A stretch of 64,000 nt of DNA from NCBI GenBank assembly GCA_963648975.1, contig CAVJFW010000003.1, positions 2,921 through 66,920 of the forward strand, in the 5' to 3' direction. The notes below the pieces were generated by a model, which was not told the DNA's origin, made no database searches, and saw only the letters and a list, made by a program, of their open reading frames with translations. Made by a program: the position numbers and the translations under genes. The stretch's first letter is position 1, and each line of letters starts with the position of its first letter. Positions 19,839 through 35,755 of this stretch are shown one piece after another. Source of the stretch: a bacterium. GTDB taxonomy: Bacteria; Bacillota_I; Bacilli_A; RFN20; CAG-288.

Positions 19839-19926
19839 ATGGGATGGGATTGTTTATTGCAGTCATATAAGGACGTTTTACCTTTTTTCTTGCAAAATCA
19901 TATGGTTTGAAGTATCGTAATCCAAA

Positions 19927-21366
19927 ATGAAAAAACAATTGATTCCTATTCTTTTCAGCTCCTTGTCAATGCTTCTTTTCTCCTGTAACCAGAAAAAGGA
20001 GATGGTCTATTCCTTCCCATCGCTTTTTGTCATACAAAAGGATTCATCGGATAGACTGAGTGTTGAATCTGATGAACTGATCTCTCCTTTCAATACCTAT
20101 TTTCAGACATCACTATATTGCTATGAGGGAGATTACTCATCAAGTCAGATAGATAAGATGAAAGAAGATTATCAGGAAAAAATCTGTTATTATCATGCTC
20201 TGAGTGACCGACATTATTACTATGATTACGATGAAAAGAGAATCAATAACATCAAGGTCATAAACGATTCCTATGGCAAGGAAGAATGGATTCAGCTTGA
20301 TCCCTATCTTTATGACCTACTCAAGAGAAGTTTTCAGTTCTCGCTCGACAGTGACGGGAAATTCAACATCTTCCTTGGTGAAATCAATGATGTCTATGAA
20401 AAGAAGTTGTCTGAAATCCATTCATCCTTGAATGTGTCTGATGAGGATAAGAAGCTGATGGATGTGACAGGCCTATATTTCTCGTCATTCACTGAGGAAG
20501 AAAAGGATGATATCAAGAAATATGTTTCCTATCTCCCATCCTTGGAAGAAATGAAATCGATGCTGAGCTTTGATGATGATACCAATCAGGTCATATTCCA
20601 TGCTCTGTATGATTCAGATGGGAAACAAAAGAAAATTCAGATATCCCTTGGTGGATCTGCCAAAGGCTATGCCACTGAATATTACACTTCAGAACTGAAG
20701 AAGGAATATCCGGATATCTGTCTTATCATGAATTCCGGAACTTCATCCATCAAGGCAACTGCCAAGAGAGTCGATGGAAAGAACTTTAAGATAAGATACA
20801 TAAATCCGGCTTATCAGGAACAGATTGATGCCCTGAATTCGAAGTATGTTGATTATGAAGTCATGCTCTCTCTATCCGGCCCATTCAGTCTTTCCACTTC
20901 CGGATTTTACGAAAATTATTTCTACGAGAATCAGGATGGTGATTTCATCAGAAGAAGCCATATTCTGGATTCCGCTACCGGGTATTCCTCTTCTTGCTTC
21001 GATCAGGTCGGAATCGTTGGTGATGATGCTTTTTTATCTGACATGTATACGACGGCTTTGATGAACTGCCATTCACTGGATGAAGCAAAGAGTCTTCTTG
21101 ATGGCCTGAATGGAATATATGATACTGAGTACAAGGCAATCTTCTGCGTACGTATGGAAGATAATGGTCTTTATTCCTTTTCCAAGGATAAATATTCTCC
21201 TTTGGATGAAAAGAATGATTTCATCTTCAGTGATGGCAAACCGGTGACGAAGCTCACGGGGCAATTCAAAGAAGTCTACTATGTCGATGATGATCTATAT
21301 GAAAGCTTTTCCCTGATTGAGTCGAAAACCAATAAGACTCGGATAAGTGAAATCAGGAAAATATAA
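19927..21366 (+). CDS. apbE: ApbE-family FAD:protein FMN transferase, lipoprotein with a long N-terminal extension
   Basis: Signal peptide plus lipobox (LLFSC). ApbE motifs: ISLGGSAKGYATE and SHILDSATGYS. Confidence 0.7.
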   Translation: MKKQLIPILFSSLSMLLFSCNQKKEMVYSFPSLFVIQKDSSDRLSVESDELISPFNTYFQTSLYCYEGDYSSSQIDKMKEDYQEKICYYHALSDRHYYYDYDEKRINNIKVINDSYGKEEWIQLDPYLYDLLKRSFQFSLDSDGKFNIFLGEINDVYEKKLSEIHSSLNVSDEDKKLMDVTGLYFSSFTEEEKDDIKKYVSYLPSLEEMKSMLSFDDDTNQVIFHALYDSDGKQKKIQISLGGSAKGYATEYYTSELKKEYPDICLIMNSGTSSIKATAKRVDGKNFKIRYINPAYQEQIDALNSKYVDYEVMLSLSGPFSLSTSGFYENYFYENQDGDFIRRSHILDSATGYSSSCFDQVGIVGDDAFLSDMYTTALMNCHSLDEAKSLLDGLNGIYDTEYKAIFCVRMEDNGLYSFSKDKYSPLDEKNDFIFSDGKPVTKLTGQFKEVYYVDDDLYESFSLIESKTNKTRISEIRKI

Positions 21367-21370
21367 AAAA

Positions 21371-21400
21371 GTCCGGTTGAATTCAGACCGGACTTTTTTG
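21371..21400. terminator. bidirectional intrinsic terminator
   Basis: AAAAAAGTCCGGT ... ACCGGACTTTTTT, a perfect hairpin flanked by an A-run and a T-run. Confidence 0.75.
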
Positions 21401-21588
21401 AAAGGAAAGGCAATCGGAATTTGATTTTTGTGGAAGATGCTGCAGTTCGGATGGAAGGACGACTGCTTTTATGCCAAGATTGCCGGTTGGCATTTTAGAA
21501 AGGAGGGTCCAAATTCGAGTATGATTTGAACATCTATAGGATACCACTACGCTTGTCCGTTTTTTTGGACATGAAAAAAGATTACGAA

Positions 21589-22311
21589 TCAAATCGTAAT
21601 CTTTGCTCTTGTGATGATGTTTCCTTCCTTATCCTTAAGCAGATAATAGAGTTCATTGTCAATCTTCGTGTAATCGATGGTGAGATTGTCACCTTCCTTC
21701 GCTTCCTTGATGTAATTGACTTCCATCTCCTTGTAGGGTAGGTGTCTTAGCTCACTGGATTTCAGGCAATTCATGAAATAACGGATGTAGGAAATATTGT
21801 TCAGATGGTTTGAATAGTCGATGTCCGTGGATTCGACAATGACATCCCTATGGATGGTGTTTTCATTGTTGTAGTCTGGGTAGCGGTTGAACAGTCCTTT
21901 TATGGACACGTTTTCCTCTTCTGCCTTCAGATCAAGGAATGGTTTGAATTCATCTAAGTTTCTCAGCTTTCTGGTGACCATGTCGATGCTCGAGAGCTGG
22001 ATATAGGAGGTAAGAAGTGGCTCGTTCTCGTTTTCCCTGTAAAGTCTAGTGCGGAGGATGATGGCGACGGATGATTTTCTTATGGCATCCACCTTGCTAT
22101 AGATCGTATCCATGAAATGGACCCTGGAATGAAAGATGATATGGTTACGCAATACAACCATGATGGCACGATAGGTGTGATTCAGTTCCTTGGATGAGAA
22201 ACCGTTGTCACTCAAAAACTCAGTCGTCGCATCTTCGACGATCTTTGCCAATGAAAGCAGTGTGACATGCATACCGCTGTCAACCATGGAATAACGGATT
22301 TGGGTTTTCAT
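21589..22311 (-). CDS. acyl-ACP thioesterase family protein
   Basis: 240 aa with a double hot-dog layout. The second half carries DIDYSNHLNNISYIRYF (D-x-D-x-N-x-H-V/L-N-N-x-x-Y signature). It is the last gene of the fab operon. Confidence 0.65.
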   Translation of the reverse strand: MKTQIRYSMVDSGMHVTLLSLAKIVEDATTEFLSDNGFSSKELNHTYRAIMVVLRNHIIFHSRVHFMDTIYSKVDAIRKSSVAIILRTRLYRENENEPLLTSYIQLSSIDMVTRKLRNLDEFKPFLDLKAEEENVSIKGLFNRYPDYNNENTIHRDVIVESTDIDYSNHLNNISYIRYFMNCLKSSELRHLPYKEMEVNYIKEAKEGDNLTIDYTKIDNELYYLLKDKEGNIITRAKITI

Positions 22312-22393
22312 TTTGATTTCTCCAGTGATGAGTTGCCGTGTATAGGATTACGGCAATTGTGATTGATGAAAGCAGCTTTGCTTATGATGAAGA

Positions 22394-23302
22394 TTATCCA
22401 AGGATTGCCTTGATTGTATCTTCATAGCCCTGGATGTCAGAGACGTTGTAAATGTTGACAGGTGTAGTTGCCGTCTTTTTGACAAAGCTGGAAAGTGTCT
22501 TTCCTGGACCGATTTCAATGAAGGTATCGACACCTTTGTCAAGAAGGTAACGGATGGAGTCCTCGAAATAGACGGAATGGCAGATCTGAGCCTTGAGGAT
22601 GTCATTTATCGGTTCATCCATTTCCTTTCCGGAAACGTTATAGATGATTTTGTATGTCGGCTTATTGGGAGTGAAACGGTCAAGCACTTCCTTCAATTCA
22701 TCGCTGGCATGCTTCAACAGGGAACAATGGAAAGCACCAGAGACATTCAGTGGAATGCATCTTCTTGCCTTGTCCTTGAGCAGAACGATGGCATCATCGA
22801 CAGCTTTGCTTTCACCGGTGATGACTATCTGTCCAGGACAGTTGTAATTGGCGATTTCGACAATTCCGCTTTTGACTTCCTTCAATGTCTCCTGAATCGT
22901 CTCTCTGTCGAGATTGATGATGGCAGCCATCTTAGTAGTTCCAAGTGGAAGGGCGTTCTGCATGATTCTTCCACGGTTGGAGATGATCTCAATGGCATCC
23001 TTCAATGTCCACACATCAGAGAAAGTCAAGGCCGTGTATTCGCCCAAGGAAAGACCACAGCAATATTCCGGTTCGATGCCTTTATCCTTCAAGGCAGAGG
23101 CGATGCAATAGGATGTCAACAGCATTGCCTTCTGGGCATACATGGTCTGGTTGATCACTCCATCCTTGTCGATGAAGCAAAGATCCCTGACTTCAGGGAA
23201 ATCATCATAAGTCTTCCTGACGGCTGGAATCTGGTCATAGAAGTCTTTTCCCATATTGACGGCTTGGGCACCCTGACCAGCGAACAAAAAAGCGATTTTC
23301 AT
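22394..23302 (-). CDS. fabD: malonyl-CoA:ACP transacylase
   Basis: FAGQGAQ, the GLSLGEY active-site Ser motif, and a conserved C-terminal region. Confidence 0.9.
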   Translation of the reverse strand: MKIAFLFAGQGAQAVNMGKDFYDQIPAVRKTYDDFPEVRDLCFIDKDGVINQTMYAQKAMLLTSYCIASALKDKGIEPEYCCGLSLGEYTALTFSDVWTLKDAIEIISNRGRIMQNALPLGTTKMAAIINLDRETIQETLKEVKSGIVEIANYNCPGQIVITGESKAVDDAIVLLKDKARRCIPLNVSGAFHCSLLKHASDELKEVLDRFTPNKPTYKIIYNVSGKEMDEPINDILKAQICHSVYFEDSIRYLLDKGVDTFIEIGPGKTLSSFVKKTATTPVNIYNVSDIQGYEDTIKAILG

Positions 23303-23306
23303 ATAT

Positions 23307-24224
23307 TTACCTTCCTATTTTTCTGAATTTATCATATCTTTGGGAGAGCATATCCTCGACATCCATATTGGAGAGCTGTTCAATTTTTGAAATCAGGTTT
23401 TCCTTCAGCTTGTTGGAATAGTCCAAGGAAAGATATCTGAGACCTCCCAAAGGTTCGTGGATGATTTCATCGATGATTCCATATTCAAGAAGATCCTCTG
23501 ATGTCATCTTCATATAGTTGACAGCTTCCTCCGGCTTTACCTTACCTTTGAAAAGAATGGAGGAAAATCCTTCAGGGGAGAGAACACTGTAGACAGCATT
23601 TTCAAACATGTAGATGTAATCTGAAACAGTGAGTGCAAGTGCACCGCCGCTTCCTCCTTCAGAGAGGATGACGGAAATGACAGGGGTCTTAAGCATGGAG
23701 AATTCCATGAGGTTTTCGGCTATAGCCCTGGCCTGGCCTCTTTCTTCAGCTCCTTTTCCCGGATAAGCACCGGAAGTATCGACGAAGCAAAGAATCGGTC
23801 TATGGAATTTTTCGGCTTCCTTGGCAAGTCTCAATGTCTTTCTGAAACCTTCCGGAGATGTCATGCCGAAATTTCTTTTGATTTTTTCACTTGTGTCGGA
23901 ACCTTTGGCCTGTGCCAAGATGGTTACCGGATATTTCCCCAGATAGCCGATACCGGATATGATGGAGGCATCATCGGAATAATATTGGTCACCATGTAGT
24001 TCATAGAATTCAGTGATAAGATGTGAAATCAGGGTCTTTGCCTTGATTCTTTTGTCGCTTCTGGCAATACAAACCTTATCCCAAGCTGTTAGGTTGGCAT
24101 ATGTTTCCTGCTTGAATTTCTTCAGCGCATCTTTCTTTTGAAGATATTCTTCACTTTTTGGATCCAGTGTGAGAAGCTCCTCTTCCAAAGCTTCTATCTT
24201 CATTTCATTTTCTTCCAAGATCAT
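23307..24224 (-). CDS. accA: acetyl-CoA carboxylase carboxyltransferase alpha subunit
   Basis: Typical AccA motifs FVDTSGAYPG, AEERGQA and GEGGSGGALA. Confidence 0.9.
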   Translation of the reverse strand: MILEENEMKIEALEEELLTLDPKSEEYLQKKDALKKFKQETYANLTAWDKVCIARSDKRIKAKTLISHLITEFYELHGDQYYSDDASIISGIGYLGKYPVTILAQAKGSDTSEKIKRNFGMTSPEGFRKTLRLAKEAEKFHRPILCFVDTSGAYPGKGAEERGQARAIAENLMEFSMLKTPVISVILSEGGSGGALALTVSDYIYMFENAVYSVLSPEGFSSILFKGKVKPEEAVNYMKMTSEDLLEYGIIDEIIHEPLGGLRYLSLDYSNKLKENLISKIEQLSNMDVEDMLSQRYDKFRKIGR

Positions 24225-25096
24225 TATCTGTAATTATGAAGCTTTAACAAGAGACCCAAGGTCTTCTTCATATCCTTTCTTTCCACGATATTGTCGATAT
24301 ATCCTTTGCTAAGAAGGAACTCTGCTGTCTGGAAATCCTTCGGCAGGGTTTCCTTGATGGTCTGTTCGATGACTCTCTTTCCGGCAAAACCGATAAGAGC
24401 CTTTGGCTCTGCCAGGGTGATGTCGGCTAGACTTGCAAATGAAGCAGAAACACCACCGGTCGTCGGATCAGTCATTACGACGATGAACAGTTCTTTTTCC
24501 TTGAGTTTTCCAATTGCCTGACTGGTCTTTGCCATTTGGAACAGGGAAATGACACCTTCCTGCATTCTGGCACCTCCAGAGCATGTAAAGATGATGAGAG
24601 GCTTATGTTCCTTAAGTGCCTTTTCGGCCAACAAGGTGACTTTCTCACCGCAGATCGAACCCATGCTACCCATCATGAAATAGGAATCCATGACGCCGAC
24701 CAGGACACTGATGGAAGAAATCTTTCCATCAACACAGACGATGGATTCATCATCTCCTGATGTTTTTTTGGCTGTTTCCAGCTTATCCTTGTATTCCGGA
24801 AAGTCAGTATATTTTTCTTCGATGTTCTCGAATATGACGGTGTATCCTTCATCCATGACCTGGTCCAATCTTTCATGGGCATGAAGTCTTCCATGATGTC
24901 CGCAGCTCGGGCATACATGAAGATTGGAGGTGTATTCCTCGTTTAGGAGAGTCTTTCCGCAATGCGGACATTGGACAAGAAAGCCTTCCGGGATTTCTCT
25001 GGGAGTGGAGGTTTCAGGTTTTCTGATCTGAAGCTTGTCCAAGGCTTCAGAGAATTCCTTCAGCTCTTCTTTTCTTTTACTGAATGAGTCTGACAT
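24224..25096 (-). CDS. accD: acetyl-CoA carboxylase carboxyltransferase beta subunit
   Basis: N-terminal Zn ribbon CPHCGKT...CPSCGHH, then the MGSMGS and SGGARMQEG motifs. Confidence 0.9.
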   Translation of the reverse strand: MSDSFSKRKEELKEFSEALDKLQIRKPETSTPREIPEGFLVQCPHCGKTLLNEEYTSNLHVCPSCGHHGRLHAHERLDQVMDEGYTVIFENIEEKYTDFPEYKDKLETAKKTSGDDESIVCVDGKISSISVLVGVMDSYFMMGSMGSICGEKVTLLAEKALKEHKPLIIFTCSGGARMQEGVISLFQMAKTSQAIGKLKEKELFIVVMTDPTTGGVSASFASLADITLAEPKALIGFAGKRVIEQTIKETLPKDFQTAEFLLSKGYIDNIVERKDMKKTLGLLLKLHNYR

Positions 25097-26444
25097 TGTT
25101 TTCTAGCTCCTTTAGTGCCTCTTCCACAAAGGAAGTGTTGAAGTTGCCCAGGATGTATTTGGTATGATGCATGAGGTAGTAATGGAATTCAATGGTGGTC
25201 GGGACGCCTTCAATGATGAGTTCAGCCAGGGCCTCACGCATCTTTCTGATGCATTCAAGTCTTGATTCGCCATGTACGATGAGTTTGAGAATCATGGAAT
25301 CGTAGAAAGGTGGAATCTCATATCCAGGATATACGGCAGTGTCGATTCTGACCCCCTTGCCTCCAGGAAGATTCAGGAAAGTGATCTTGCCTGCAGAAGG
25401 ACGGAAGTCATTGTTGATGTCTTCGGCGTTGATTCTGCATTCGATGGCAAATCCATTCTGATGGATGTCTTCTTGTCTGTATGGAAGCTTGTTTCCCGCT
25501 GCTATTTTGATCATCAGCTTCACAAGGTCTATACCGGTGATTTCTTCGGTGATGGAATGTTCTACCTGGATTCTGGTATTCATTTCGATGAAATAATAGT
25601 TTTCATCTTCGTCAACCAAGAATTCGATGGTTCCGACTGAATCATAATTGGTTGCCTTGCAAGCCAGGATTGCAGAATCATAAAGCTTTTTCTTCAGTTC
25701 ATCGGAAATGGACTGACAGGGTGCTTCCTCAAGAATCTTCTGCTTTCTCCTCTGCATGGAGCAATTTCTTTCGAAAAGGTGTATGCAGTTATGATGTTTG
25801 TCAGCAACGACCTGAACCTCGACATGCTTTGGATTGAGGACTAATTTTTCGACATAAAGTTCATCGTTTCCGAAGAATTTCTTTGCTTCTTCCTTGGCTT
25901 CGTTGTATTTGTCAAGAAATTCCTTTTCACTGGAAACCTGACGGATGCCTTTGCCTCCGCCACCGGCGCTAGCCTTGATCAGGACAGGGAAGCCGATTTT
26001 CTGGGCGATTGCCAATCCCTCCTCACCACTGACTGCTCCATAGGATCCTGGAACGATAGGTACTCCGGCTTCCTTCATCATGGAGATGGCTTCGGACTTG
26101 TTTCCCATTTTCTCCATGACATCTGGATTGGGACCAATCCAGGTAAGTCCGCAGGTGATGACCATTCTTGCAAAGAGAGGTGATTCACTTAGGAATCCAA
26201 AGCCCGGATGAATCGCATCACAACCAGTCATGCAGGCGGCCGAAATAATGCTGGCCATGTTCAGGTATGACTGATCAGATGATGGTCCGCCGATGCAAAC
26301 TGCCTCATCGGCAAACTGGACATGAAGGGCAGATTTGTCCGCCGTTGAATAGATGGCGACGGTCTGGATTCCCATCTCCTTGCAGGCTCTGATGATTCTT
26401 ACGGCGATTTCGCCTCGGTTGGCAATCAAGATTTTCTTGAACAT
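25077..26444 (-). CDS. accC: biotin carboxylase
   Basis: KILIANRGEIA, the ATP-grasp motifs GGGGKG and EMNTRIQVEH. Confidence 0.95.
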   Translation of the reverse strand: MFKKILIANRGEIAVRIIRACKEMGIQTVAIYSTADKSALHVQFADEAVCIGGPSSDQSYLNMASIISAACMTGCDAIHPGFGFLSESPLFARMVITCGLTWIGPNPDVMEKMGNKSEAISMMKEAGVPIVPGSYGAVSGEEGLAIAQKIGFPVLIKASAGGGGKGIRQVSSEKEFLDKYNEAKEEAKKFFGNDELYVEKLVLNPKHVEVQVVADKHHNCIHLFERNCSMQRRKQKILEEAPCQSISDELKKKLYDSAILACKATNYDSVGTIEFLVDEDENYYFIEMNTRIQVEHSITEEITGIDLVKLMIKIAAGNKLPYRQEDIHQNGFAIECRINAEDINNDFRPSAGKITFLNLPGGKGVRIDTAVYPGYEIPPFYDSMILKLIVHGESRLECIRKMREALAELIIEGVPTTIEFHYYLMHHTKYILGNFNTSFVEEALKELENNVRLIQ

Positions 26445-26446
26445 AG

Positions 26447-26869
26447 TCAGTCTCCCAAGACAAACAGTGCCTGATCGAATTCCACCATGTCACCTTCGTT
26501 GGCAAGAATTTCCAGTACGGTACCATCCTTGTCGGCGGTGATTTCATTCATGACCTTCATGGCTTCAATGATACAGAGCTTGTCTCCTTTTTTGATATGC
26601 TGTCCAACAGAGACAAAAGGCTTTCCATCCTGATATGGAGCCTGATGGTATGTGCCGACCAATGGTGATTTGATGGTCTTGCCAGAGGTGGGCTTGACTT
26701 CTTCCTTGTTTTCTTCATTGGAAGCTTCAACAATTGGTGTACCATTTACGACAATAGGCGTCATTTCCTTTGTCAGCTTGATTTTCACGCCATCATCTTC
26801 GACTTCCAAGGAAGAGATGTTCGCTTTTTCAAACAGATGGATTACTTTTTCTATTTCTTCGAGTTTCAT
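26447..26869 (-). CDS. accB: biotin carboxyl carrier protein of ACC
   Basis: C-terminal CIIEAMKVMNEI biotinylation motif; 140 aa. Confidence 0.9.
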   Translation of the reverse strand: MKLEEIEKVIHLFEKANISSLEVEDDGVKIKLTKEMTPIVVNGTPIVEASNEENKEEVKPTSGKTIKSPLVGTYHQAPYQDGKPFVSVGQHIKKGDKLCIIEAMKVMNEITADKDGTVLEILANEGDMVEFDQALFVLGD

Positions 26870-27105
26870 TATCTGGAACCTCCTTTTTTCTTTTCAACCA
26901 AGGCAACGACATCATTTACCGTGATGAGGGTCTTGAGTTCTTCAGGTTCAATCTTGATTTTGAAATGTGTCTCCAGCTCCAGGGCCATTTCAACGGCATA
27001 AAGGGAATCAAAGGAAAGATCTTCCTTTAGTCTTGCCTCAGGGTTGATCTTATCTTCCTTTACGTTTGCAGTATCAATCAATAGTTGCTTTACTTCTTCG
27101 AACAT
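26869..27105 (-). CDS. acyl carrier protein (ACP-2)
   Basis: 78 aa with the DLSFDSLYAVEM phosphopantetheine-Ser motif and an AGGAGG RBS. Its stop overlaps the accB start. Confidence 0.8.
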   Translation of the reverse strand: MFEEVKQLLIDTANVKEDKINPEARLKEDLSFDSLYAVEMALELETHFKIKIEPEELKTLITVNDVVALVEKKKGGSR

Positions 27106-27117
27106 TGTCGAAACCTC

Positions 27118-27867
27118 CTATTTTTGGCCTTTGTTTCTTTCTTCGTCCCAGAAATTCTTCAGGAATATCTTATAGGCACCTTCCGTGAATGGTGGTTTGC
27201 TGAGTGACTGCAGTTCTTCAGCGGAAAGGGTTCCTTCATTTCGAAATACTTCACCTGCCTTTATGAATTTGTCGAGATAGCGGTTTAATTTGTTCTCGTT
27301 ATGCAGATCGACAAGTGTCTTCATCTGTGGAACGAGAATCGGCGTATAGTTTCCTTTTCCCATTATGGCGTCATGTTGAGCTATCAAGGCCTGATAGACA
27401 CCATTCGTTTCGGTATATGCACAGGTCGAAATCAGAATAAATCTCTTGCTTGCATCCGGATACCTAAGTCCGTGGAAGGACTCGCCGTTATCAGGAGCTT
27501 TCTGTCCTTCATATGTGGACATCATGCAGAGAAGTCTGTCAGTGAGAACCTTCATGATTCCCGGCATGGAGAAATAATAAAGCGGATAGGAACAAATGAT
27601 GATGTCAGAATCAAGAATCTTCTGCTTGACCATATTCACATCATCGTCTTTTATGACGCATTCACCCGCCGTTCTTCCCCAGCAGGAGAGGCATCCCATG
27701 CAAGGTCTAATGTGGAGAGCAGAAACATCGATCATTTCTATTTCCAGGTCCGATTTGAAGTTAAGTCCCTTTAAGAAGGCCTTTGTGACGATGAGGGTAT
27801 TGCTGAGAGTCCTTCTTGGAGAACCATTCAACACCAAAACCTTCCTGGGGGAAAATTTATTCTCCAT
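27118..27867 (-). CDS. flavodoxin-fold NAD(P)H/FMN reductase-like protein with an iron-sulfur-flavoprotein Cys motif
   Basis: VLVLNGSPRR (FMN_red/flavodoxin-like N-terminus) and the compact CMGCLSCWGRTAGEC (C-x2-C-x2-C-x7-C) motif. Its ATG lies 11 nt inside the 3' end of fabZ. Confidence 0.65.
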   Translation of the reverse strand: MENKFSPRKVLVLNGSPRRTLSNTLIVTKAFLKGLNFKSDLEIEMIDVSALHIRPCMGCLSCWGRTAGECVIKDDDVNMVKQKILDSDIIICSYPLYYFSMPGIMKVLTDRLLCMMSTYEGQKAPDNGESFHGLRYPDASKRFILISTCAYTETNGVYQALIAQHDAIMGKGNYTPILVPQMKTLVDLHNENKLNRYLDKFIKAGEVFRNEGTLSAEELQSLSKPPFTEGAYKIFLKNFWDEERNKGQK

Positions 27868-28312
27868 AGATGGCTTCTTTGTTGACGGAAGTGAATGTCA
27901 TGCTTCCTTTGGCATACACAACATCATCTACCTTTACGATGGCATCAAAGCTTGTGAGAGGACCAAGAACCTTGCTCTTCTTTACCGTGATGACAAGTGT
28001 GTCACCTGGTATGACAGGCTTGATGAACTTGAAATTGTCGACTTTCAGAAGGACATAGATCTGACCATCCTTCACTCCGTCGGAATCGATGACCAAGGAA
28101 CTGAGCTGTGCACAGCATTCGATGACAAGGACACCTGGCATGATTGGAGCATCAGGAAAATGACCCATGAAATATGGCTCGTTGACAGAAACGTTCTTGA
28201 TTCCGGTGGCAGAGACGTTTGGCTCAAGTTCGATGACTTTCTCAATCATCTGGAATGGTGGACGCTGTCTGATCTTCTTATTGATGTCGTTGATATTCAT
28301 TACTGCTTTCAT
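27857..28312 (-). CDS. fabZ: 3-hydroxyacyl-ACP dehydratase
   Basis: EPYFMGHFPDAPIMPGVL active-site motif; 151 aa hot-dog fold. Confidence 0.9.
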   Translation of the reverse strand: MKAVMNINDINKKIRQRPPFQMIEKVIELEPNVSATGIKNVSVNEPYFMGHFPDAPIMPGVLVIECCAQLSSLVIDSDGVKDGQIYVLLKVDNFKFIKPVIPGDTLVITVKKSKVLGPLTSFDAIVKVDDVVYAKGSMTFTSVNKEAIYGE

Positions 28313-29043
28313 TATAAGGATAAACCTCCATCGAGTGTGATGACCTGACCGGTGAGATAGCTTGCCTCATCGCTGACGAGCATGCTGACGACATTGGCGA
28401 TATCTTCTACTTCACCAAGTCTGTGAAGCGGAATTCTGTCAAGGTTGGCCTTCATCTGTTCTTCAGGGATGTGATCGAGCATTTCGGTCTTGATGAAGCC
28501 TGGTGCGATGGCGTTGACACGGATTCCATATCTTGCCAGTTCCTTTGCAGCAGTGGCAGTGAAGGAATTGACGGCACCTTTCGTTGCGGAATAGACCGTC
28601 TGACCTGGCAAGGCGAATTTTCCGGAAACAGAGGACATGTTGACGATTGCTCCATGCTTCTTTCTCATCATCTTCAGGGCAACCTGTTGCGTGCAGTAGA
28701 AATAACCTTTGATGTTGAGATTTGTGCAGAGGTCAAGATTGTCCGGATTCATCATCAAAAGATATTCATCCCTGACGATGCCGGCGTTGTTGACGAGAAC
28801 ATCGATCTGGCCATAGGTCTTGAAGACTTCGTTGACCATCTTCTTTACTTCGTCGAGCTTGGAAACATCAGCCTTGTAGGCAATGGCTTCTCCCCCGTCG
28901 GCCTTGATTGTTTCGACAGTATTGAGTGCTGCTTCTTCGCCATGGGAGTAGTTGACGACGACAAGATAACCATCTTTTGCCAAACGGATGGCAACACCTT
29001 TTCCGATTCCCTTGGAGGAACCTGTGACAATTGCGACTTTCAT
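28312..29043 (-). CDS. fabG: 3-oxoacyl-ACP reductase
   Basis: TGSSKGIGKG, NNAG, YSATKGA and a classical SDR layout. Start set at MKVAIV, which has AAGGAGA 7 nt upstream. Confidence 0.85.
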   Translation of the reverse strand: MKVAIVTGSSKGIGKGVAIRLAKDGYLVVVNYSHGEEAALNTVETIKADGGEAIAYKADVSKLDEVKKMVNEVFKTYGQIDVLVNNAGIVRDEYLLMMNPDNLDLCTNLNIKGYFYCTQQVALKMMRKKHGAIVNMSSVSGKFALPGQTVYSATKGAVNSFTATAAKELARYGIRVNAIAPGFIKTEMLDHIPEEQMKANLDRIPLHRLGEVEDIANVVSMLVSDEASYLTGQVITLDGGLSL

Positions 29044-29059
29044 GAATGATTCTCCTTTT

Positions 29060-31450
29060 TTATTTGCTGATGATGACGGCAGTATAGCTTCCACCGGAAG
29101 CAAAGGCCGTGACCAAGATGTGCTTCATATCCTTGCCATAGGCAGTTGTGTTGATGACACCGGACTTCTTGAGAAGGTAGCAGGATTTGTCTTCCTTGAC
29201 GGTCTCAGAGACAAGCAGTGAAGCATCGACCAAGGAAAGAAGTGCTGCATTGGCTCTGGCTTCACCGATTCTTCTCTTTGTGGAGATGATCGGCAAGGTT
29301 TCGAGTCTGTCTTTGAAGACCTTTTCATAGACATTCTTTTCAAGATCGTCGATGGCTTTCATGCCATTTGCGAAACCGGAAATGGCAGAGATGTCATCGA
29401 TGGTAAGATGTGCTTCCTTCATGGCTTCGAGAATGGCTTTTTCCAGGGCAGCTTCTGATCCGGAAACATGTCCATATGGAACAGCGGAGTTGAATGTGGC
29501 ATATCCGGAAATCTTTCCGTAGGTCTTCACGCCTCTGTCCTTGGCATGTTTCTCGGATTCGAGAATCAGACTTGTGGCACCATCGGAAAGAACGAAGCCG
29601 TTGGATGAGGAGTATGGTTCGACATAACCATCGGCGACATATCCGAGCTGATGATATAACTGGCTGGTGATTGAGATGTTTTCATCGCTTCCGCTGACAA
29701 GGACCATTTCTTCCTTCTTGTTTTCAAGGATGTTCATGGCATAGCCGATGGAGGCAAGACCAGACTGTGGACCATTGCAAATGGTGACGTTGTAACCCTT
29801 GATGCCGGTGTAGATGGAAAGGTATCCCGCAGCGGCATTATATACGGTATTCGGGAACTTGAAGGCTGAACCAGCTGCATTTCCCTTTTCGGCCAAGGTT
29901 TCCTCAAAGAGACAACCCATGCCCATGGCACCTTCGCTCGTGCCATCGACGATGCCGATCTTCGTGGCATTGTCGTCAGTTATGGTGATGTTTGCATTCT
30001 TCAGCGCTTCGACACCGGAGAATGTTTCCAACTGTGAGACGACATCCCATTTTCTGTAGATGGACATCGGAATTCCGATGCTTGCGAAGTCCTCCTTGGA
30101 GATTTCGGAATGGACGTCACTTCCTTCGACCTTAACGTCATTATTGAAATTTTCGACATATTTTTCAAAACCGTTGCCAAGTGGAGTGACGATGCCAAAT
30201 CCGGTGATGACCTTATTGTCAAGATCCTTATCCACTTTGACGTCACCGACCTTGTCGGAGAAAATGATGGATGCATTGTTTCCGCCAAAGGCAAAGGAAT
30301 TGTTCATGACGTAATCCAACTTCTTTTCCTTTGCAACATTTGGAACAAAGTCGATATCTCCGGCATTTTCCTTCAATTGAGGCATATCCTCATCAGAGAA
30401 GCCTAGCGTCGGAGGAATGATGGAATTGTTGAGAGACTTGATGCAGAAAATGGCTTCGATGGAACCTGCTGCGCCAAGACAATGTCCCACCATCGGCTTG
30501 GTGGAGGAAACGCTGAGCTTGTCGTTGTCTGCACCGAAGATGGTCTTGAGTGACAGGAATTCGGCATAGTCATTCTTGTGGGTACCAGTACCATGGGCGT
30601 TGACATAACCGATTTCCTTGGCATCGATGCCGGAATTTCTGATGGCCCAGTTGATGGCGTTCATCTGTCCTTCGCCATCTTCCCTAGGGGCAGTGATGTG
30701 GTGGGCATCGGTGGAGACACCGCTTCCGAGAACCTCACAGTACATATGTGCTTTTCTCTTCATTGCGTGTTCATAGGATTCGACGATGAGAATGCCACTA
30801 CCTTCTCCGAGGTTGATGCCTGTGGTATGGTTGAAGGAGGAACACTGTTCTGGATCCATGGCGTGGAGGGCGAGGAATCCGGCATATGGAACGCTGGCAA
30901 AGGCATCGGTACCACCGCAGATGACAACATCTGCTCTGCCGTCACGGATAAGGTCTGTGGCATAGGAGATGGACATGGTACCTGCTGCACAGGCGTTGGC
31001 AATGGTGGTTACGACACCACCTGCATTGACATATCTTGCGACCTGGGAAGAGATGCATGCCATAGGCATCTGAAGAATCTCTTTGGTTTCCTTTCCTTTG
31101 GTGTAATAGTTCTCGATGGCATCGACACCTGCGACGCAGTTGCCGATGATGCAGGAAACGCGGGAGGAATCCTCAAATTCTTCAATTCCGGCGTCTTTCA
31201 GAGCTTCTTTTGCGGCATGAATGCATAATTTTGTTGCCCTGTCGAGATATTCCCCATTTCCGATGTCGCTAAGGTCGGTATGGACTTCGCTTGCCTTCTT
31301 TGCATAGCATCCTTCGGTTGGAACGGATGTGATTTCCTTTGTACCTGAAATGCCTTTGATCGCGTTATCGAAGCATTCCTGGACATTGTCACCGATGGAA
31401 GTGATCATTCCTAAGCCGGTGACGACACAACGATTTTTGTTTTCAGTCAT
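29060..31450 (-). CDS. fused beta-ketoacyl-ACP synthase (KAS I/II-type) plus catalytically degenerate KS-like (CLF-like) domain
   Basis: The N-terminal half has ANACAAG (Cys), DAHHITAP and NAHGTGT (His-His) and GHCLGAAG. The C-terminal half has a KS fold but reads NGPQSG / FANGMKA / IGEARANAA at the corresponding positions. Confidence 0.8.
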   Translation of the reverse strand: MTENKNRCVVTGLGMITSIGDNVQECFDNAIKGISGTKEITSVPTEGCYAKKASEVHTDLSDIGNGEYLDRATKLCIHAAKEALKDAGIEEFEDSSRVSCIIGNCVAGVDAIENYYTKGKETKEILQMPMACISSQVARYVNAGGVVTTIANACAAGTMSISYATDLIRDGRADVVICGGTDAFASVPYAGFLALHAMDPEQCSSFNHTTGINLGEGSGILIVESYEHAMKRKAHMYCEVLGSGVSTDAHHITAPREDGEGQMNAINWAIRNSGIDAKEIGYVNAHGTGTHKNDYAEFLSLKTIFGADNDKLSVSSTKPMVGHCLGAAGSIEAIFCIKSLNNSIIPPTLGFSDEDMPQLKENAGDIDFVPNVAKEKKLDYVMNNSFAFGGNNASIIFSDKVGDVKVDKDLDNKVITGFGIVTPLGNGFEKYVENFNNDVKVEGSDVHSEISKEDFASIGIPMSIYRKWDVVSQLETFSGVEALKNANITITDDNATKIGIVDGTSEGAMGMGCLFEETLAEKGNAAGSAFKFPNTVYNAAAGYLSIYTGIKGYNVTICNGPQSGLASIGYAMNILENKKEEMVLVSGSDENISITSQLYHQLGYVADGYVEPYSSSNGFVLSDGATSLILESEKHAKDRGVKTYGKISGYATFNSAVPYGHVSGSEAALEKAILEAMKEAHLTIDDISAISGFANGMKAIDDLEKNVYEKVFKDRLETLPIISTKRRIGEARANAALLSLVDASLLVSETVKEDKSCYLLKKSGVINTTAYGKDMKHILVTAFASGGSYTAVIISK

Positions 31451-31490
31451 TTTCTTTTGTTTCCTTTGTGATTTTCAAATATTCAAATTG

Positions 31491-31520
31491 TGAAGAAAAA
31501 AAGTGGCATAATGCCACTTT
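31491..31520 (-). terminator. intrinsic terminator/attenuator between ACP-1 and the KS gene
   Basis: AAAGTGGCAT / ATGCCACTTT hairpin, followed on the minus strand by T7. It lies in the 82-nt gap after the ACP stop. Confidence 0.6.
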
Positions 31521-31532
31521 CATGTACGATGT

Positions 31533-31781
31533 TTACTTCTTGTTGGCAATGATATAAGCAGCGATGGTATCAATGCTTCTGAAGTTTTCCTTGGCAACAC
31601 CAGTCATGGAAACCTGATATTGTTCATCGATGTGGGAGATGATTTCGATGGAATCAATGGAATCAAGTCCGATTTCAGTGCCTTCGAACAATGGAGTGGA
31701 GAATTCAAGGCTGTCTGCATCGACACCGAGATTCTCGACGATGAAATCCTTAAGGTCCTGCTTAACTTCGTTTTCGTTCAT
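31533..31781 (-). CDS. acyl carrier protein (ACP-1)
   Basis: 82 aa with the GLDSIDSIEI phosphopantetheine-Ser motif. It is the first gene of the fab operon. Confidence 0.75.
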   Translation of the reverse strand: MNENEVKQDLKDFIVENLGVDADSLEFSTPLFEGTEIGLDSIDSIEIISHIDEQYQVSMTGVAKENFRSIDTIAAYIIANKK

Positions 31782-31823
31782 GATTAATTTTTCCTTTCAT
31801 CAATTAAGATAAACTTTCGATAT

Positions 31824-31853
31824 ATTATATAAAATAATATAGCTGAATGTCAA
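31824..31853 (-). promoter_or_regulatory. sigma-A-type promoter of the fab operon
   Basis: On the minus strand: TTGACA (31853-31848), an 18-nt spacer, then TATAAT (31829-24). This is about 45 nt upstream of the ACP-1 ATG. Confidence 0.55.
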
Positions 31854-31983
31854 AAACTGACGTTGCAATTGTATCACCCTATTTTGCCTCGGACAATACA
31901 TTCACTTCGGAATGGACATATTTTCTTTGATTTGTCGCATCAATTCATGCTGTTTTAAAGGAATATATATTTCAAAATAATGA

Positions 31984-32535
31984 CTATTCATGTATTTTGA
32001 CAAAATAATGGAGATTTGGAAAAATCTCAAAACATATGGCGGATATTTCATCCACGGAGAGGTCAAAGTCATTCTCCACCCATAGTTCGACTACGTTCAG
32101 CATGGCACTCATCAATGCCTCAAGCTGATATTCCTCCTTCTTGTCATATCTTTTCTTTTCCATTTCCGGAAGGTATTTGAGCAACGAGGATACCCTTGCC
32201 TTGAATATGAGCCTTACGATTCGTTCGTTATTCTTGACTATCGTAAATAGATTCTGATACCACTTCTCGGGATGGGTGATGTTTTCCTTCGTATTCAGTC
32301 CATTGAACAGAAGGTGGAAGACCGAAATGGAAAAATCCTTGAGGATATCTTCCTTTGATTTGTAGTTTCGGTAATAGGCTGACCTTGATACACCCGCCTT
32401 CTCCACGATTTCCGTCACGGAAATATCCTGGATTTCCTTTTTTCCCAAAAGATAGACCAATGCTTCCTGGATCGCGTTCTTGGTCAGATGATTTATTTCT
32501 TCGTTGGATAGTTTCAGATTTTTGTTTTCATTCAT
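31984..32535 (-). CDS. TetR-family transcriptional regulator
   Basis: HTH ISVTEIVEKAGVSRSAYYRNYKSKEDIL. It lies immediately upstream of the fab promoter. Confidence 0.8.
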   Translation of the reverse strand: MNENKNLKLSNEEINHLTKNAIQEALVYLLGKKEIQDISVTEIVEKAGVSRSAYYRNYKSKEDILKDFSISVFHLLFNGLNTKENITHPEKWYQNLFTIVKNNERIVRLIFKARVSSLLKYLPEMEKKRYDKKEEYQLEALMSAMLNVVELWVENDFDLSVDEISAICFEIFPNLHYFVKIHE

Positions 32536-33113
32536 TTGATTTTTTTCTTCATTGTCAAAAGGTAGCTGTTTTCGGTTTCTTCTGCCTTGATGATGTCAAA
32601 GGAATCAAGATATAAGGATGCTTCCTCATTTACAGGAAGAAGATTCCTGGAAATCGGTGATATGCCTTGATGTACTTTTGAAAGATAATCTCTTGAGATA
32701 TCATGGACGATTGCCAATATGCCATCCTTTGAAAGAACTTCTAGGGATTTTCTCTTGAATTTCCCAAGATCGAGGAAGTGGGGATAGGAATCAAACAGGA
32801 CGATTTTGTCAAAACCTTTCCTTTTCGTCAAATAGAAATCTTCATTGACAAAAGTCACTTTTGAATCCGGTATTCCTTTTTCCAGGGCAAAATGTATCAT
32901 CTTGTCGGAAAGATCCATGGCAATGACGGTTTCTAGGCTTCTTTCATATAGTCTTTCTGATATTACGCCTTTTCCACATCCGAGATCGAGAACACTGTCA
33001 CCTTTTCTTATTCCGATTTCATCGAGCAGGGAATCTATGAGACAAAAATCTTTTTTTGCGCCGTTGTCATATTCCTCTGCGATGCTGTTGAAGAATTGCT
33101 GTATTATATTCAT
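32532..33113 (-). CDS. class I SAM-dependent methyltransferase
   Basis: Motif I VLDLGCGKGV and the post-I acidic residue (AMDLS). Its stop overlaps the TetR start. Confidence 0.75.
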   Translation of the reverse strand: MNIIQQFFNSIAEEYDNGAKKDFCLIDSLLDEIGIRKGDSVLDLGCGKGVISERLYERSLETVIAMDLSDKMIHFALEKGIPDSKVTFVNEDFYLTKRKGFDKIVLFDSYPHFLDLGKFKRKSLEVLSKDGILAIVHDISRDYLSKVHQGISPISRNLLPVNEEASLYLDSFDIIKAEETENSYLLTMKKKIK

Positions 33114-33227
33114 GTTCGTTTTTCTTTTTGATAAATGTTAGCATAATTCCATCTGTTTACCAATCAGATGAACGATATTCTCATTATCATATGAAGAACA
33201 ATGATGAATTTCAGGGAGGTATAAGAC

Positions 33228-33953
33228 ATGATCAAGGCAATCCTGTTTGACCTGGATGGAACACTCTTGCCAATGGATGAGAAAAAATTCACCGAAAAAT
33301 ATTTTTCGCTGTTGGCAAGGAAACTTTACCCTTTAGGTTATGAACCCAAAAAACTTGTGAATGCCATTGTGGCAGGACTTGAAAAAATGTATGCAAATGA
33401 CGGAACGGAATCAAACGAGGCTGTCTTCTGGAATACATTCAATACTTTTTATGATGAAGACAAAAGGAAGGACTCCGAAACATTCCTTTCCTTCTATGAA
33501 AACGAATTTTCCAAGACAAGGGATGAGACAAAGCCTAATCCCATGGCAAGGGAAATCATCGACTTCTGCAAGTCCCATTTTGACAAGGTAATTCTTTCGA
33601 CTAACCCTATTTTTCCACTTGAAGCACAGAAGATGAGATTGTCTTTTGTTGGACTTGAATATGACGATTTTGATTTTGTGACCGATTATTCCAATTCCGG
33701 CCATTGCAAACCAAATCCGTGTTTCTTCAAGGATGTTTTGGATAAATGCCATCTTCTGCCAGAGGAAGTCATTCTTTTCGGAAATGATTATCTTGAGGAT
33801 GGAGACTGTGCTTCATCATTGGGAATCAGGACATATCTCATCGATGGATGTCTTTTACATAAGGAAAAGGCAAAAGGTGATTATCCGGTCTTATCCATGA
33901 GTGAAGTCATACCTACCTTGGAAAAGGAAATCCTTAACAATGGAACTCACTGA
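33228..33953 (+). CDS. HAD-family hydrolase
   Basis: Motif I ILFDLDGTL, motif II STNP and motif IV GNDYLEDGD. Confidence 0.8.
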   Translation: MIKAILFDLDGTLLPMDEKKFTEKYFSLLARKLYPLGYEPKKLVNAIVAGLEKMYANDGTESNEAVFWNTFNTFYDEDKRKDSETFLSFYENEFSKTRDETKPNPMAREIIDFCKSHFDKVILSTNPIFPLEAQKMRLSFVGLEYDDFDFVTDYSNSGHCKPNPCFFKDVLDKCHLLPEEVILFGNDYLEDGDCASSLGIRTYLIDGCLLHKEKAKGDYPVLSMSEVIPTLEKEILNNGTH

Positions 33954-34461
33954 AATCATAAAAAGACGGTATTCCACAAGAGATTATTCTTCCAAGGAAG
34001 TTCCTCTCCCGTTGCTTAGGGAGGTCATCTCCGAGGCTAGACTTGCCCCATCGGCAAAGAACCATCAACCTTATCGTGTCATCTGTATCAGGAATGCCTC
34101 AATCATTGAAAAACTGAAAAAAGAACAGATTCCCCTGTTTAATTCACAATGTGTCCTGGTTTTTCTTGGAAGCTATGACCTAGCTTGGAAAAACAAGAGA
34201 GATGAAGGGAAAGGAAGTCAGGAAATGGATCTTTCCATATTCATGACATATGTCAACCTTTTACTTGAAGACAAAGGAATCTCATCCTGCATCATTGGTG
34301 CCTTTGACAAAGTTGCAGTATCAAATATTCTCGATATTCATGATTCTTTTACTCCTTATGCCTTAATGACCGTCGGCTATGCGTCAAAGCAGTCGGAACC
34401 CTGTTCTCCATTTCATGACCATAGGAAGGATATCGATGAGTTGTTCACCGTGGTCGATTGA
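33940..34461 (+). CDS. nitroreductase-family protein
   Basis: IIKRRYSTRDY and APSAKNHQPYR motifs. Start placed at MELTEI, overlapping the HAD stop by 14 nt. Confidence 0.75.
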   Translation: MELTEIIKRRYSTRDYSSKEVPLPLLREVISEARLAPSAKNHQPYRVICIRNASIIEKLKKEQIPLFNSQCVLVFLGSYDLAWKNKRDEGKGSQEMDLSIFMTYVNLLLEDKGISSCIIGAFDKVAVSNILDIHDSFTPYALMTVGYASKQSEPCSPFHDHRKDIDELFTVVD

Positions 34462-34502
34462 AATCTCTTGCATTCCCTTTTTCTGAATCCTATACTATCA
34501 GC

Positions 34503-34588
34503 GTTACGGCGGGACTGCATATTGCGGTTGAGAGGGTTTAAACCCGACGCTTAGAACCTGTTGGTCAAGACCAGTGTAGGGAGTAAAC
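34503..34588 (+). promoter_or_regulatory. TPP (THI-box) riboswitch aptamer
   Basis: TTGAGAG...ACCC...GAACCTGTTGGTCAAGACCAGTGTAGGGAG matches the CUGAGA / ACCUGAUCUGG..CCAGCGUAGGGA core. P1 is TTAC/GTAA. It is upstream of a ThiT-like gene. Confidence 0.8.
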
Positions 34589-34617
34589 AAAACGATCGAT
34601 TGTTCACTTGTCTATTT

Positions 34618-34646
34618 GCCTTGCCCGATTTGGTCAAGGCTTTTTT
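34618..34646 (+). terminator. TPP riboswitch expression-platform terminator
   Basis: GCCTTG ... CAAGGC hairpin followed by T6, 20 nt before the thiT ATG. Confidence 0.7.
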
Positions 34647-34666
34647 AATAGCCGGAAAGGTCATTT

Positions 34667-35647: not shown

Positions 35648-35679
35648 AGCTTGTAAAAAAAGAATTTTTTTGTCAAATA

Positions 35680-35709
35680 AGATGGATGGAATGCTTCATC
35701 CATCTTTTT
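35680..35709 (+). terminator. intrinsic terminator
   Basis: GATGGATG ... CATCCATC hairpin followed by TTTTT. Confidence 0.6.
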
Positions 35710-35755
35710 ATTCATCTGATTTTTTTCTATAATTTAGTCAAGGAAGTAATGAAAT

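Follow-up and report, generated by a model that had tools for sequence, protein, structure and literature searches.

A type II fatty-acid synthesis operon encoding a fused, chain-length-factor-like ketosynthase and a candidate flavodoxin-fold enoyl-ACP reductase

How might a bacterial fatty-acid synthesis operon work if it encodes neither FabH nor any of the known reductases of enoyl-acyl carrier protein (ACP)? The question is raised by an operon in a 64,000-nucleotide stretch of DNA (assembly GCA_963648975.1, contig CAVJFW010000003.1, positions 2,921 to 66,920 of the forward strand), which we refer to as the window and number from its first letter. On the basis of open reading frame (ORF) listing, Pfam and NCBIfam scans, and the gene calls on an identical public contig, the operon comprises 12 co-directional minus-strand genes which encode, in order, ACP-1, a fusion of a ketosynthase (KS) with a KS-like domain (KS~KS'), FabG, FabZ, a flavoprotein, ACP-2, AccB, AccC, AccD, AccA, FabD and an acyl-ACP thioesterase; this content and order, proposed in a first-pass annotation of the sequence, were borne out. 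Canonical fab clusters normally carry fabH and enoyl reductase genes, although the first-pass annotation went too far in writing that they always do. We put at roughly 0.5 the probability that the operon encodes a variant of housekeeping type II fatty-acid synthesis (FAS II), with the flavoprotein as its enoyl-ACP reductase and with a fused KS that is self-priming.

We searched the window by phmmer with E. coli FabH, E. coli FabI, S. pneumoniae FabK and T. denticola FabV (sequences that served as probes only). None of the four matched anywhere in the 64 kb, except that the FabK probe found an IMP dehydrogenase (20.7 bits), which we rejected as a FabK. FabL is likewise missing from the window, where the FabL model gives FabG 203 bits, its cut-off being 328, and the Pfam scan returned for 3-ketoacyl-ACP synthase (KAS) III just a sub-threshold ACP_syn_III match inside the KS domain. 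Among approximately 85 distinct related loci, no FabH, FabK, FabV or FabI-like short-chain dehydrogenase/reductase (SDR) turned up within 10 kb on either side of the fused KS, and neither the window nor these loci contain an SDR that is closer by score to FabI than to FabG. A further 10 kb past the end of the window, read on the contig of a related assembly, encodes no FabH or enoyl-ACP reductase (ENR) and holds glycogen genes, trigger factor, Lon and ValS. The absence in cis of KAS III and of any known ENR, two expected members of a FAS II set, is thus solid for the 64-kb window and the approximately 85 loci; the first-pass annotation had claimed it for the operon, and the synteny comparison that it proposed found no orthologous operon with fabH, fabK or fabI inserted among these loci.

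Several ORFs were considered as hidden or divergent reductases and rejected. The sole other SDR in the window (10012-10824) resembles gluconate 5-dehydrogenase rather than FabI or FabL. In related loci that lack the flavoprotein, the unlabelled ORFs after FabZ encode a PlsC-like acyltransferase, a patatin/DUF6363 protein and a LysE transporter, and those near standalone FabF genes encode a DUF2334 protein and an AMP-binding enzyme.

The KS~KS' fusion (29060-31450, minus strand, 796 aa) contains two ketoacyl-synt and Ketoacyl-synt_C pairs. Its KS domain (residues 1-400; 30251-31450) belongs to the FabF type (TIGR03150 fabF, 1.8e-141; NF005589, 448 bits against a cut-off of 387), with B. subtilis FabF (4ls5, 8.6e-83) as the nearest solved structure. 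All of 85 relatives (85/85) retain Cys154, His286, His323 and Lys318, so that the operon has an elongating KAS I/II with the Cys-His-His triad of FAS II. Judged from its sequence, the N-terminal half is an intact, fully equipped FabF-type ketosynthase and is predicted to be active.

The second half, KS' (residues ~415-796; 29060-30208, minus strand), aligns with FabF (4e-27) but replaces the catalytic Cys by Pro561 and the two His by Phe693 and Glu730. Among the 85 relatives the Cys position is occupied by Ala, Pro, Ser, Phe or Asn and never by Cys, while Phe693, Glu730 and Arg732 are invariant; KS' is therefore a conserved non-condensing domain resembling a chain-length factor (CLF), and not a decaying duplicate. 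That this Glu, Arg and Phe never vary suggests that they have kept some function in binding or in structure. We also considered KS' as a malonyl-ACP decarboxylase of the KSQ type and rejected this assignment: its Gln562 lies one residue past the Cys position, occurs in only 59 of the 85 relatives, and both His are gone. In the AlphaFold (AF2) model of the fusion (pLDDT 87.7, pTM 0.92) the full-length chain superposes on the KS-CLF didomain of PfaC (6RIW) at TMq 0.80. An active KS and a Cys-less partner are thus predicted to pack as a KS-type dimer, without the Gln signature of KS-CLF pairs, and the model points to an intramolecular KS-CLF-like pseudo-heterodimer.

The flavoprotein (27118-27867, minus strand, 249 aa, with PCMGCLSCWGRTAGEC) matches FMN_red (1.4e-16) and Flavodoxin_2 (2.5e-14), and its gene overlaps that of FabZ by 11 nt. 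It carries a Cys4 motif, CX2CX2CX7C, and an alignment of 43 homologues shows no variation at Cys56, Cys59, Cys62 or Cys70, nor in the NGSP phosphate loop and an SxPLxxF segment; the more general pattern CxxCxxCx(4-12)C is present in 62 of the 62 copies from the related loci. A compact N-terminal Cys motif defines the iron-sulfur flavoproteins (Isf). The present protein has such a motif (CX2CX2CX4-7C) together with a predicted flavodoxin-like fold for flavin mononucleotide (FMN): its AF2 model (pLDDT 93) adopts the azoreductase/quinone-reductase flavodoxin-like fold (Foldseek probability 1.00, also for the flavone reductase described next).

By sequence, no solved structure comes closer to the flavoprotein than 7D38, the flavone reductase (FLR) from Flavonifractor plautii (E 1.7e-9); the alignment spans residues 10-113 and takes in the Cys motif. 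This FMN enzyme hydrogenates the C2-C3 double bond of flavones, conjugated to a carbonyl, with hydride from FMNH-; it is unable to use NAD(P)H directly, and what feeds it electrons is reported as not known (PMC7862272). The flavoprotein is not an FLR orthologue: the alignment to 7D38 stops at residue 113, the two proteins differ in length (249 against 310 aa), the structural match is at TMt 0.41, and the flavoprotein has no counterpart of the extended C-terminal substrate-binding domain (FLR residues 222-308). As a side observation, the 7D38 alignment places the same Cys-rich motif (CTGCTAC...C) in FLR itself, and a term search of the FLR paper showed that it mentions neither cysteine nor an iron-sulfur cluster for this enzyme (PMC7862272); a lost [4Fe-4S] cluster could explain why the physiological electron donor of FLR is unidentified.

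To what extent are these two proteins partners? The fusion is encoded by at least 587 species-representative genomes, whose record titles include Treponema, Fibrobacter, Anaeroplasma bactoclasticum ATCC 27112, Acholeplasmatales and Eubacterium sp. AF22-9, and further Agathobacter, Lachnospiraceae, Ruminococcus and Christensenella, although some labels of metagenome-assembled genomes (MAGs) are clearly wrong bins. ORFs were classified in 81 distinct loci, of which 68 were informative in that they held enough sequence to judge the flavoprotein. A core of ACP-1, KS~KS', FabG and FabZ is present in 76-77 of the 81. The flavoprotein lies in the cluster, within 10 kb, in 56 of the 68 informative loci; in addition, three homologues with 50-53% identity, looked up independently, were all (3/3) inside KS~KS' clusters, one of them directly followed by PlsX. 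Its position varies, after FabZ in one architecture and after AccA in another, which argues for functional linkage rather than inherited adjacency. The first-pass annotation had singled out the fused KS and the flavoprotein among the unusual elements of this operon, and both prove to be conserved partners rather than local oddities.

Four gene orders can be told apart; they were matched to taxa by reading record titles and not by a scripted tabulation. Type A, found in this window, in Mollicutes-like records and in T. rectale, runs core, flavoprotein, ACP-2, AccB, AccC, AccD, AccA, FabD, (thioesterase). Type B, mostly Clostridia-type, runs (TetR, patatin, PlsC-like), core, FabD, (TldD/PmbA), AccD, AccA, flavoprotein, and then thioesterase or PlsX. 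Type C, mostly Treponema, consists of core, flavoprotein, (PlsC-like, patatin), and type D, mostly Fibrobacter with two Treponema, of (carboxyltransferase and FabD, divergent), core, PlsC-like, patatin; here the flavoprotein is missing in cis. PlsX follows the flavoprotein in 15 loci (for example L086), and thioesterase or PlsC-like genes are found in others; these neighbours tie the product to phospholipid synthesis.

Further features of these clusters were recorded. A TldD/PmbA metalloprotease-like pair stands between FabD and AccD in five type B loci (L002, L024, L029, L030, L034), and many type B clusters (e.g. L014, L017, L025, L085-L087) encode AccD and AccA only, with no AccB or AccC nearby. 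In Fibrobacter-labelled loci a single-chain carboxyltransferase of 498 aa adjoins FabD. In 28-30 of the 81 loci (e.g. L031, L050, L055-L065, L076, L002/L085/L087) the core is accompanied by genes for a PlsC-like acyltransferase and for a patatin-like phospholipase that bears a DUF6363 tail, downstream in Fibrobacter- and Treponema-labelled loci and upstream in Clostridia-labelled ones; this association suggests that the pathway is coupled to lipid acylation or remodelling. In two Treponema loci (L023; L047, 15100-17703) the flavoprotein is followed by a divergent TetR gene, then by a fused PlsC-type/LRAT-type acyltransferase and by an FAD enzyme resembling amine oxidases and phytoene desaturases.

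The remaining operon genes, all on the minus strand, encode recognizable FAS II proteins. For malonyl-ACP supply these are AccB (biotin carboxyl carrier protein; 26447-26869; TIGR00531, 119.2 bits against a cut-off of 115.2, with the EAMKVM motif intact), AccC (biotin carboxylase; 25077-26444; Biotin_carb_N, CPSase_L_D2 and Biotin_carb_C on the identical gene, whose 90% cluster has a member named biotin carboxylase subunit by JGI), AccD (carboxyltransferase beta; 24224-25096; Zn_ribbon_ACC and Carboxyl_trans, zinc ribbon intact), AccA (carboxyltransferase alpha; 23307-24224; ACCA and Carboxyl_trans) and FabD (malonyl-CoA:ACP transacylase; 22394-23302; TIGR00128, 263.3 bits against 260.9, GLSLGE intact). 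FabG (3-oxoacyl-ACP reductase; 28312-29043, 243 aa) scores 274 bits on TIGR01830 (1e-81), under the cut-off of 297.75, but this is nonetheless clearly its closest family (adh_short_C2, 3.4e-66); the gene call on the identical contig places its true start at the ATG at 29043, and not at the TTG of a 263-aa ORF. FabZ (3-hydroxyacyl-ACP dehydratase; 27857-28312; NF000582, 132.7 bits against 113) has an intact HFPxxPxxPGVL motif on direct reading. The last gene (21589-22311) encodes an acyl-ACP thioesterase with a double hotdog fold (Acyl-ACP_TE_C, 35.9 bits against 21; 4HBT_2, 1.6e-12).

Both ACPs pass the Pfam PP-binding model and fall below the NCBIfam AcpP cut-offs. ACP-1 (31533-31781, 82 aa; PP-binding 2.4e-9, LDSID serine motif) is encoded immediately upstream of KS~KS' in 77 of the 81 loci, and we infer that it is the dedicated partner of the fused KS. 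ACP-2 (26869-27105, 78 aa; PP-binding 1.1e-10) is AcpP-like, at 66 bits just below the AcpP cut-offs, and occurs solely alongside AccB/AccC (19 of 81 loci). The second ACP, counted as part of the novelty by the first-pass annotation, thus resembles an ordinary AcpP that travels with AccB/AccC. By these assignments AccA, AccB, AccC, AccD, FabD, FabG, FabZ and ACP are all present, and the operon is, as far as sequence can tell, a complete malonyl-ACP supply and elongation set, minus the reductase.

The genes are tightly packed. Most junctions are between -20 and +16 nt, in keeping with the overlapping or very short junctions first described, apart from two gaps of 82 nt, after ACP-1 and before the thioesterase. 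A sigma-70-type promoter, TTGACA-18-TATAAT (31824-31853, minus strand), was confirmed as the sole 12/12 consensus match in 21200-32200. The terminator scan found a terminator-like hairpin closing the operon (21577-21604, minus strand; an eleven-pair stem with a T-run) and another after ACP-1 (31499-31521, minus strand; a ten-pair stem, then TTTCTT), which is a possible partial terminator or attenuator. Directly upstream lies a gene for a TetR-family protein (31984-32535, minus strand; weak TetR-type NCBIfam matches) which is a likely regulator of the operon; it is 55-71% identical in the syntenic loci L090, L006, L007 and L040, and 23 of 81 related loci have a TetR gene next to the cluster. 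An AT-rich palindrome, TATATTAT-N5-ATAATATA (31821-31841), forms an inverted repeat overlapping the -10 box, and one may speculate that it is a TetR operator; its low complexity means that it may also be due to chance.

These observations can be assembled into a pathway. AccBCDA and FabD would supply malonyl-ACP, and FabG and FabZ, as assigned from sequence, would carry out ketoreduction and dehydration. KS' would replace the second subunit of the usual FabF homodimer and shape the acyl pocket. To initiate without FabH, the active KS half may decarboxylate malonyl-ACP to acetyl-ACP and then condense, as P. putida FabB does; alternatively it may take short acyl primers. The 249-aa flavoprotein would act as the ENR: electrons would enter through a [4Fe-4S] cluster at the Cys4 motif, with reduced ferredoxin or flavodoxin as the probable donor and NAD(P)H as a possible one, and pass to FMN, after which FMNH- would give hydride to C3 of trans-2-enoyl-ACP. 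Flavone reductase, its relative, performs the same chemistry on a C=C bond conjugated to a carbonyl. This operon closes with an acyl-ACP thioesterase, where relatives have PlsX in its place or carry a PlsC-like acyltransferase, and the upstream TetR-family protein would regulate the operon. The product is most likely ordinary saturated acyl chains for membrane lipids, and the most economical reading is a non-orthologous displacement of two FAS II steps. We extend this, tentatively and at somewhat under even odds, to the broader proposal that the flavodoxin-fold Cys4 flavoprotein is a new structural class of ENR, possibly ferredoxin-driven, and that hundreds of anaerobes from gut and rumen (with record labels Treponema, Mollicutes-like Bacilli, Clostridia and perhaps Fibrobacter) have, in this ENR and the self-priming fused KS, their only housekeeping fatty-acid synthase, which would make FabH and every known ENR dispensable.

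This reading needs to be held cautiously, as several points weigh against it. Canonical fabH and fabK, fabI, fabL or fabV may lie elsewhere in the genome. The flavoprotein is absent in cis from 12 of the 68 informative loci, mostly labelled Fibrobacter with two Treponema, and a standalone FabF lies within 10 kb of the cluster in four loci (Treponema L023; Fibrobacter L055, L062 and L076); hence the fused KS is neither always alone nor always with the flavoprotein. As KS' lacks both His needed for KS-type decarboxylation, it is unlikely to generate the primer itself. The Cys4 motif is predicted to bind a [4Fe-4S] cluster, and this cluster, the FMN and all activities given here are predictions. 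Iron-sulfur flavoproteins of this type are also known as detoxifiers of O2 and H2O2. Foldseek ranks azoreductases above FLR, which comes at rank 24 (TM 0.41-0.47), so that the fold match is generic and was discarded as specific support for an FLR-like function, the matches being generic flavodoxin-fold reductases; the sequence alignment to FLR is confined to residues 10-113, and the C-terminal substrate-binding part is unrelated.

On one alternative account the standard pathway is simply scattered: FabH and FabK or FabI would be encoded elsewhere, the operon would account for just a portion of FAS II, and the flavoprotein would be an accessory for O2 or peroxide detoxification, quinone or azo reduction, or redox protection. 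The standalone FabF genes near four loci, the 12 type D loci without a flavoprotein in cis and a fold that best matches general azo and quinone reductases all agree with it. Against it, the flavoprotein is translationally coupled to FabZ by an 11-nt overlap, keeps its association through at least three gene orders and several phyla as labelled, and was inside these clusters in 3/3 independent look-ups; moreover, fabH and fabK, fabI or fabV stand beside the carboxylase genes and fabD, their usual place in canonical clusters, in 0 of the approximately 85 loci. We consider this account unlikely, if one to be taken seriously. H. pylori FabX uses FMN and [4Fe-4S], on a different fold, and the flavoprotein might by analogy be an acyl-ACP dehydrogenase/isomerase that introduces unsaturation and not a reductase. 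The predicted FMN and Cys4 cofactor set is the pair reported for FabX, and such a role would address anaerobic unsaturated fatty-acid synthesis in organisms without FabA, FabM or FabN, for which a passage of one source describes the clostridial enzyme as still unidentified (PMC2700279); FLR is reversible, with kinetics measured in both directions between apigenin and naringenin (PMC7862272). The flavoprotein, however, has no homology to FabX or FabK, and the operon in the window has no dedicated second KS for elongating cis-3 intermediates. As this role would also leave the operon without any reductase, it needs the assumption of a scattered pathway as well, and we give it little credence.

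Equally doubtful is a secondary-lipid or polyene synthase of the aryl-polyene, ishigamide or polyunsaturated fatty acid (PUFA) type, in which a KS-CLF would work with ketoreductase and dehydratase and no true ENR, the flavoprotein would be a tailoring enzyme, and the PlsC-like and patatin enzymes would load the chain onto a lipid. That PfaC KS-CLF is the best match of KS~KS', that FabZ has weak ApeI-like matches, and that type D (mostly Fibrobacter) reduces to ACP, KS~KS', FabG, FabZ, PlsC-like and patatin with no flavoprotein in cis would all fit such a synthase. Both KS halves are nevertheless nearer to FabF than to any polyketide synthase KS or CLF, the Cys position of KS' is not Gln, FabZ and FabD pass housekeeping equivalog cut-offs, and the operon includes a full acetyl-CoA carboxylase (ACC), is followed by PlsX in relatives, and contains no cyclase, adenylation enzyme, methyltransferase or exporter. 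The first-pass annotation took the operon for the primary fatty-acid pathway, which agrees with the full ACC and FabD and with related clusters that end in PlsX or acyl-ACP thioesterase or carry a PlsC-like acyltransferase; between the two outcomes that it left open, the evidence favours non-canonical initiation and reduction and disfavours a polyene product.

What is new here is thus a candidate: a FAS II with a KS-CLF-like fused condensing enzyme and a possible new class of reductase, whose functions are proposed from genomic context and remote homology. We found no description of a flavodoxin-type ENR or of this fused KS in fatty-acid synthesis in the literature, which is a weak negative since mostly open-access papers were covered. 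The abstract of a 2022 review of enoyl-ACP reductases covers FabI, FabK, FabV, FabL and ENRs from a soil metagenome, and a term search of the review gave no mention of a flavodoxin or iron-sulfur ENR (PMC9260719). If the proposal of self-priming KS and flavoprotein reductase is true, a new ENR fold would stand beside the SDR-type and FabK-type enzymes, possibly the first to be fed by low-potential ferredoxin, and a pseudo-heterodimer of the KS-CLF type, until now associated with polyketide and PUFA synthases, would work in primary fatty-acid synthesis without FabH. It would also close pathway gaps on account of which these organisms are classed as fatty-acid auxotrophs in genome-scale models. 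Within bacterial lipid synthesis no drug target is better validated than enoyl-ACP reductase, and FabI and FabK inhibitors are promoted as microbiome-sparing or selective according to the ENR of each member; such predictions of selectivity would change if abundant taxa of the gut and rumen had an ENR of an unrecognised class. Cultured hosts are available in the Treponema rectale strain of CP031517.1, Anaeroplasma bactoclasticum ATCC 27112 and Eubacterium sp. AF22-9.

Gene order is shared well beyond the operon. Window positions 19900-36500 correspond to 242958-265351 of CP031517.1 (L090), with the same type A operon and flanking genes, and the order is common to the window and four records in all, with flanking proteins 45-65% identical: upstream MgtC, a ThiT-type transporter behind a thiamine pyrophosphate (TPP) riboswitch, a HAD hydrolase and TetR, and downstream ApbE and NusG_II. 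Of the four, CP031517.1 is a complete genome of 2.86 Mb that carries the name Treponema rectale, and the others are MAGs with the labels Bacillales and Candidatus Enterosoma and a Bacteroides-binned contig; labels of MAGs with the same synteny include Bacillales, Candidatus Enterosoma, Clostridia and Bacteroides uniformis. The records form one clade on whose name the public labels disagree, the synteny pointing as much to T. rectale as to MAGs labelled Bacilli, so that the Firmicute frame of the first-pass annotation is not secure. Either some of these conflicting labels are wrong, or more than 20 kb of DNA has been transferred as a block from one phylum to another. A class I S-adenosylmethionine-dependent methyltransferase gene (32532-33113, minus strand) overlaps the start of the TetR gene by 4 nt; its product has weak similarity, well below cut-offs, to BioC (malonyl-ACP O-methyltransferase) and to cyclopropane-fatty-acid synthase, and it is kept in L006, L007 and L040 and absent in T. 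rectale.

Elsewhere in the window, two DegV/FakB-type fatty-acid-binding proteins are encoded at 50538-51428 (minus strand) and 51874-52737 (plus strand). The organism can probably take up exogenous fatty acids too, and together with the operon thioesterase these proteins hint that free fatty acid may reach phospholipid by way of the Fak system. Outside the operon, an Rfam scan of the window returned one tRNA, one TPP riboswitch and one c-di-GMP-I riboswitch; inside it there was no match. The TPP riboswitch (34498-34599, plus strand) lies upstream of a ThiT/YuaJ-type thiamine transporter gene (34667-35647), and the c-di-GMP-I riboswitch (17536-17609, plus strand) lies directly upstream of a gene for a GGDEF diguanylate cyclase (17638-18765, plus strand), an arrangement that would constitute feedback. 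A second biotin enzyme system is found at 1814-7512 (minus strand), where four genes for a biotin-dependent decarboxylase occur together with PEP carboxykinase and a BirA-like gene; the four-gene set comprises carboxyltransferase alpha, a small subunit, a biotin carrier and a membrane beta subunit, and the alpha subunit is in a 90% cluster with a member named Na+-extruding oxaloacetate decarboxylase by JGI. At 40391-42523 (plus strand) is a gene for a 710-aa lipoprotein with collagen-like Gly-X-Y repeats and sub-threshold matches to Lcl/Scl adhesins.

How does this system compare with those already known? KS~KS' shares with the KS-CLF pairs of the PUFA synthase subunit PfaC (6RIW) and of type II polyketide synthases (the heterodimers for actinorhodin, 1TQY, and ishigamide, 6KXD) an active KS with a homologous Cys-less partner, and with PfaC also the covalent fusion of the two halves. 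It differs from these pairs in that its halves are nearest to FabF, the Cys position holds Ala or Pro rather than Gln, and the two His are replaced by invariant Phe and Glu; unlike PfaC, it is a free-standing protein accompanied by discrete FabG and FabZ, outside any megasynthase. Chains B and C of PDB 9S5H form an unfused heterodimer of a FabF-like KS and a Cys-less KS-like partner, and chain C is the second-best solved match to KS', with Glu at the second His position. This structure, for which no paper was found in the literature, comes from an anammox member of the Brocadiaceae and scores 95 bits to KS'. We rejected it as a structure of the KS~KS' system itself: its sequence, rebuilt from alignments, is ~90% identical to Brocadia proteins and represents a separate family.

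FabH-independent initiation by KAS I/II-type enzymes, through malonyl-ACP decarboxylation or direct condensation, is known for P. putida FabB, E. coli MadA and P. aeruginosa FabY (PMC10869286). In contrast to KS~KS', these are homodimeric single-domain KS or a separate decarboxylase, with no fused dead partner. On the reductase side, the flavoprotein has in common with the FLR/Isf type a flavodoxin-like FMN domain with the same N-terminal Cys-rich insertion, whereas FLR is 310 aa long with a different C-terminal substrate-binding tail, its genes are not in fatty-acid clusters, and the substrate of the flavoprotein would be an acyl-ACP thioester. With FabI, FabL and FabV (SDR/Rossmann) and FabK (an FMN TIM barrel) the flavoprotein would share the reaction, and with FabK the FMN, but it differs from all of them in fold and family.

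Finally, relative to canonical FAS II (fabH-acpP-fabK/fabI-fabD-fabG-fabF-accB-fabZ-accCDA), the operon lacks KAS III and FabI, FabK, FabL or FabV in cis, fuses its KS to a dead KS-like domain, includes a Cys4 flavodoxin-fold flavoprotein, and adjoins a regulator of the TetR type rather than FapR or FabT. Like the canonical system, it brings together ACC, FabD, ACP, FabG, FabZ and a KS of the FabF type with Cys-His-His in one operon, and its relatives are linked to PlsX or thioesterase.

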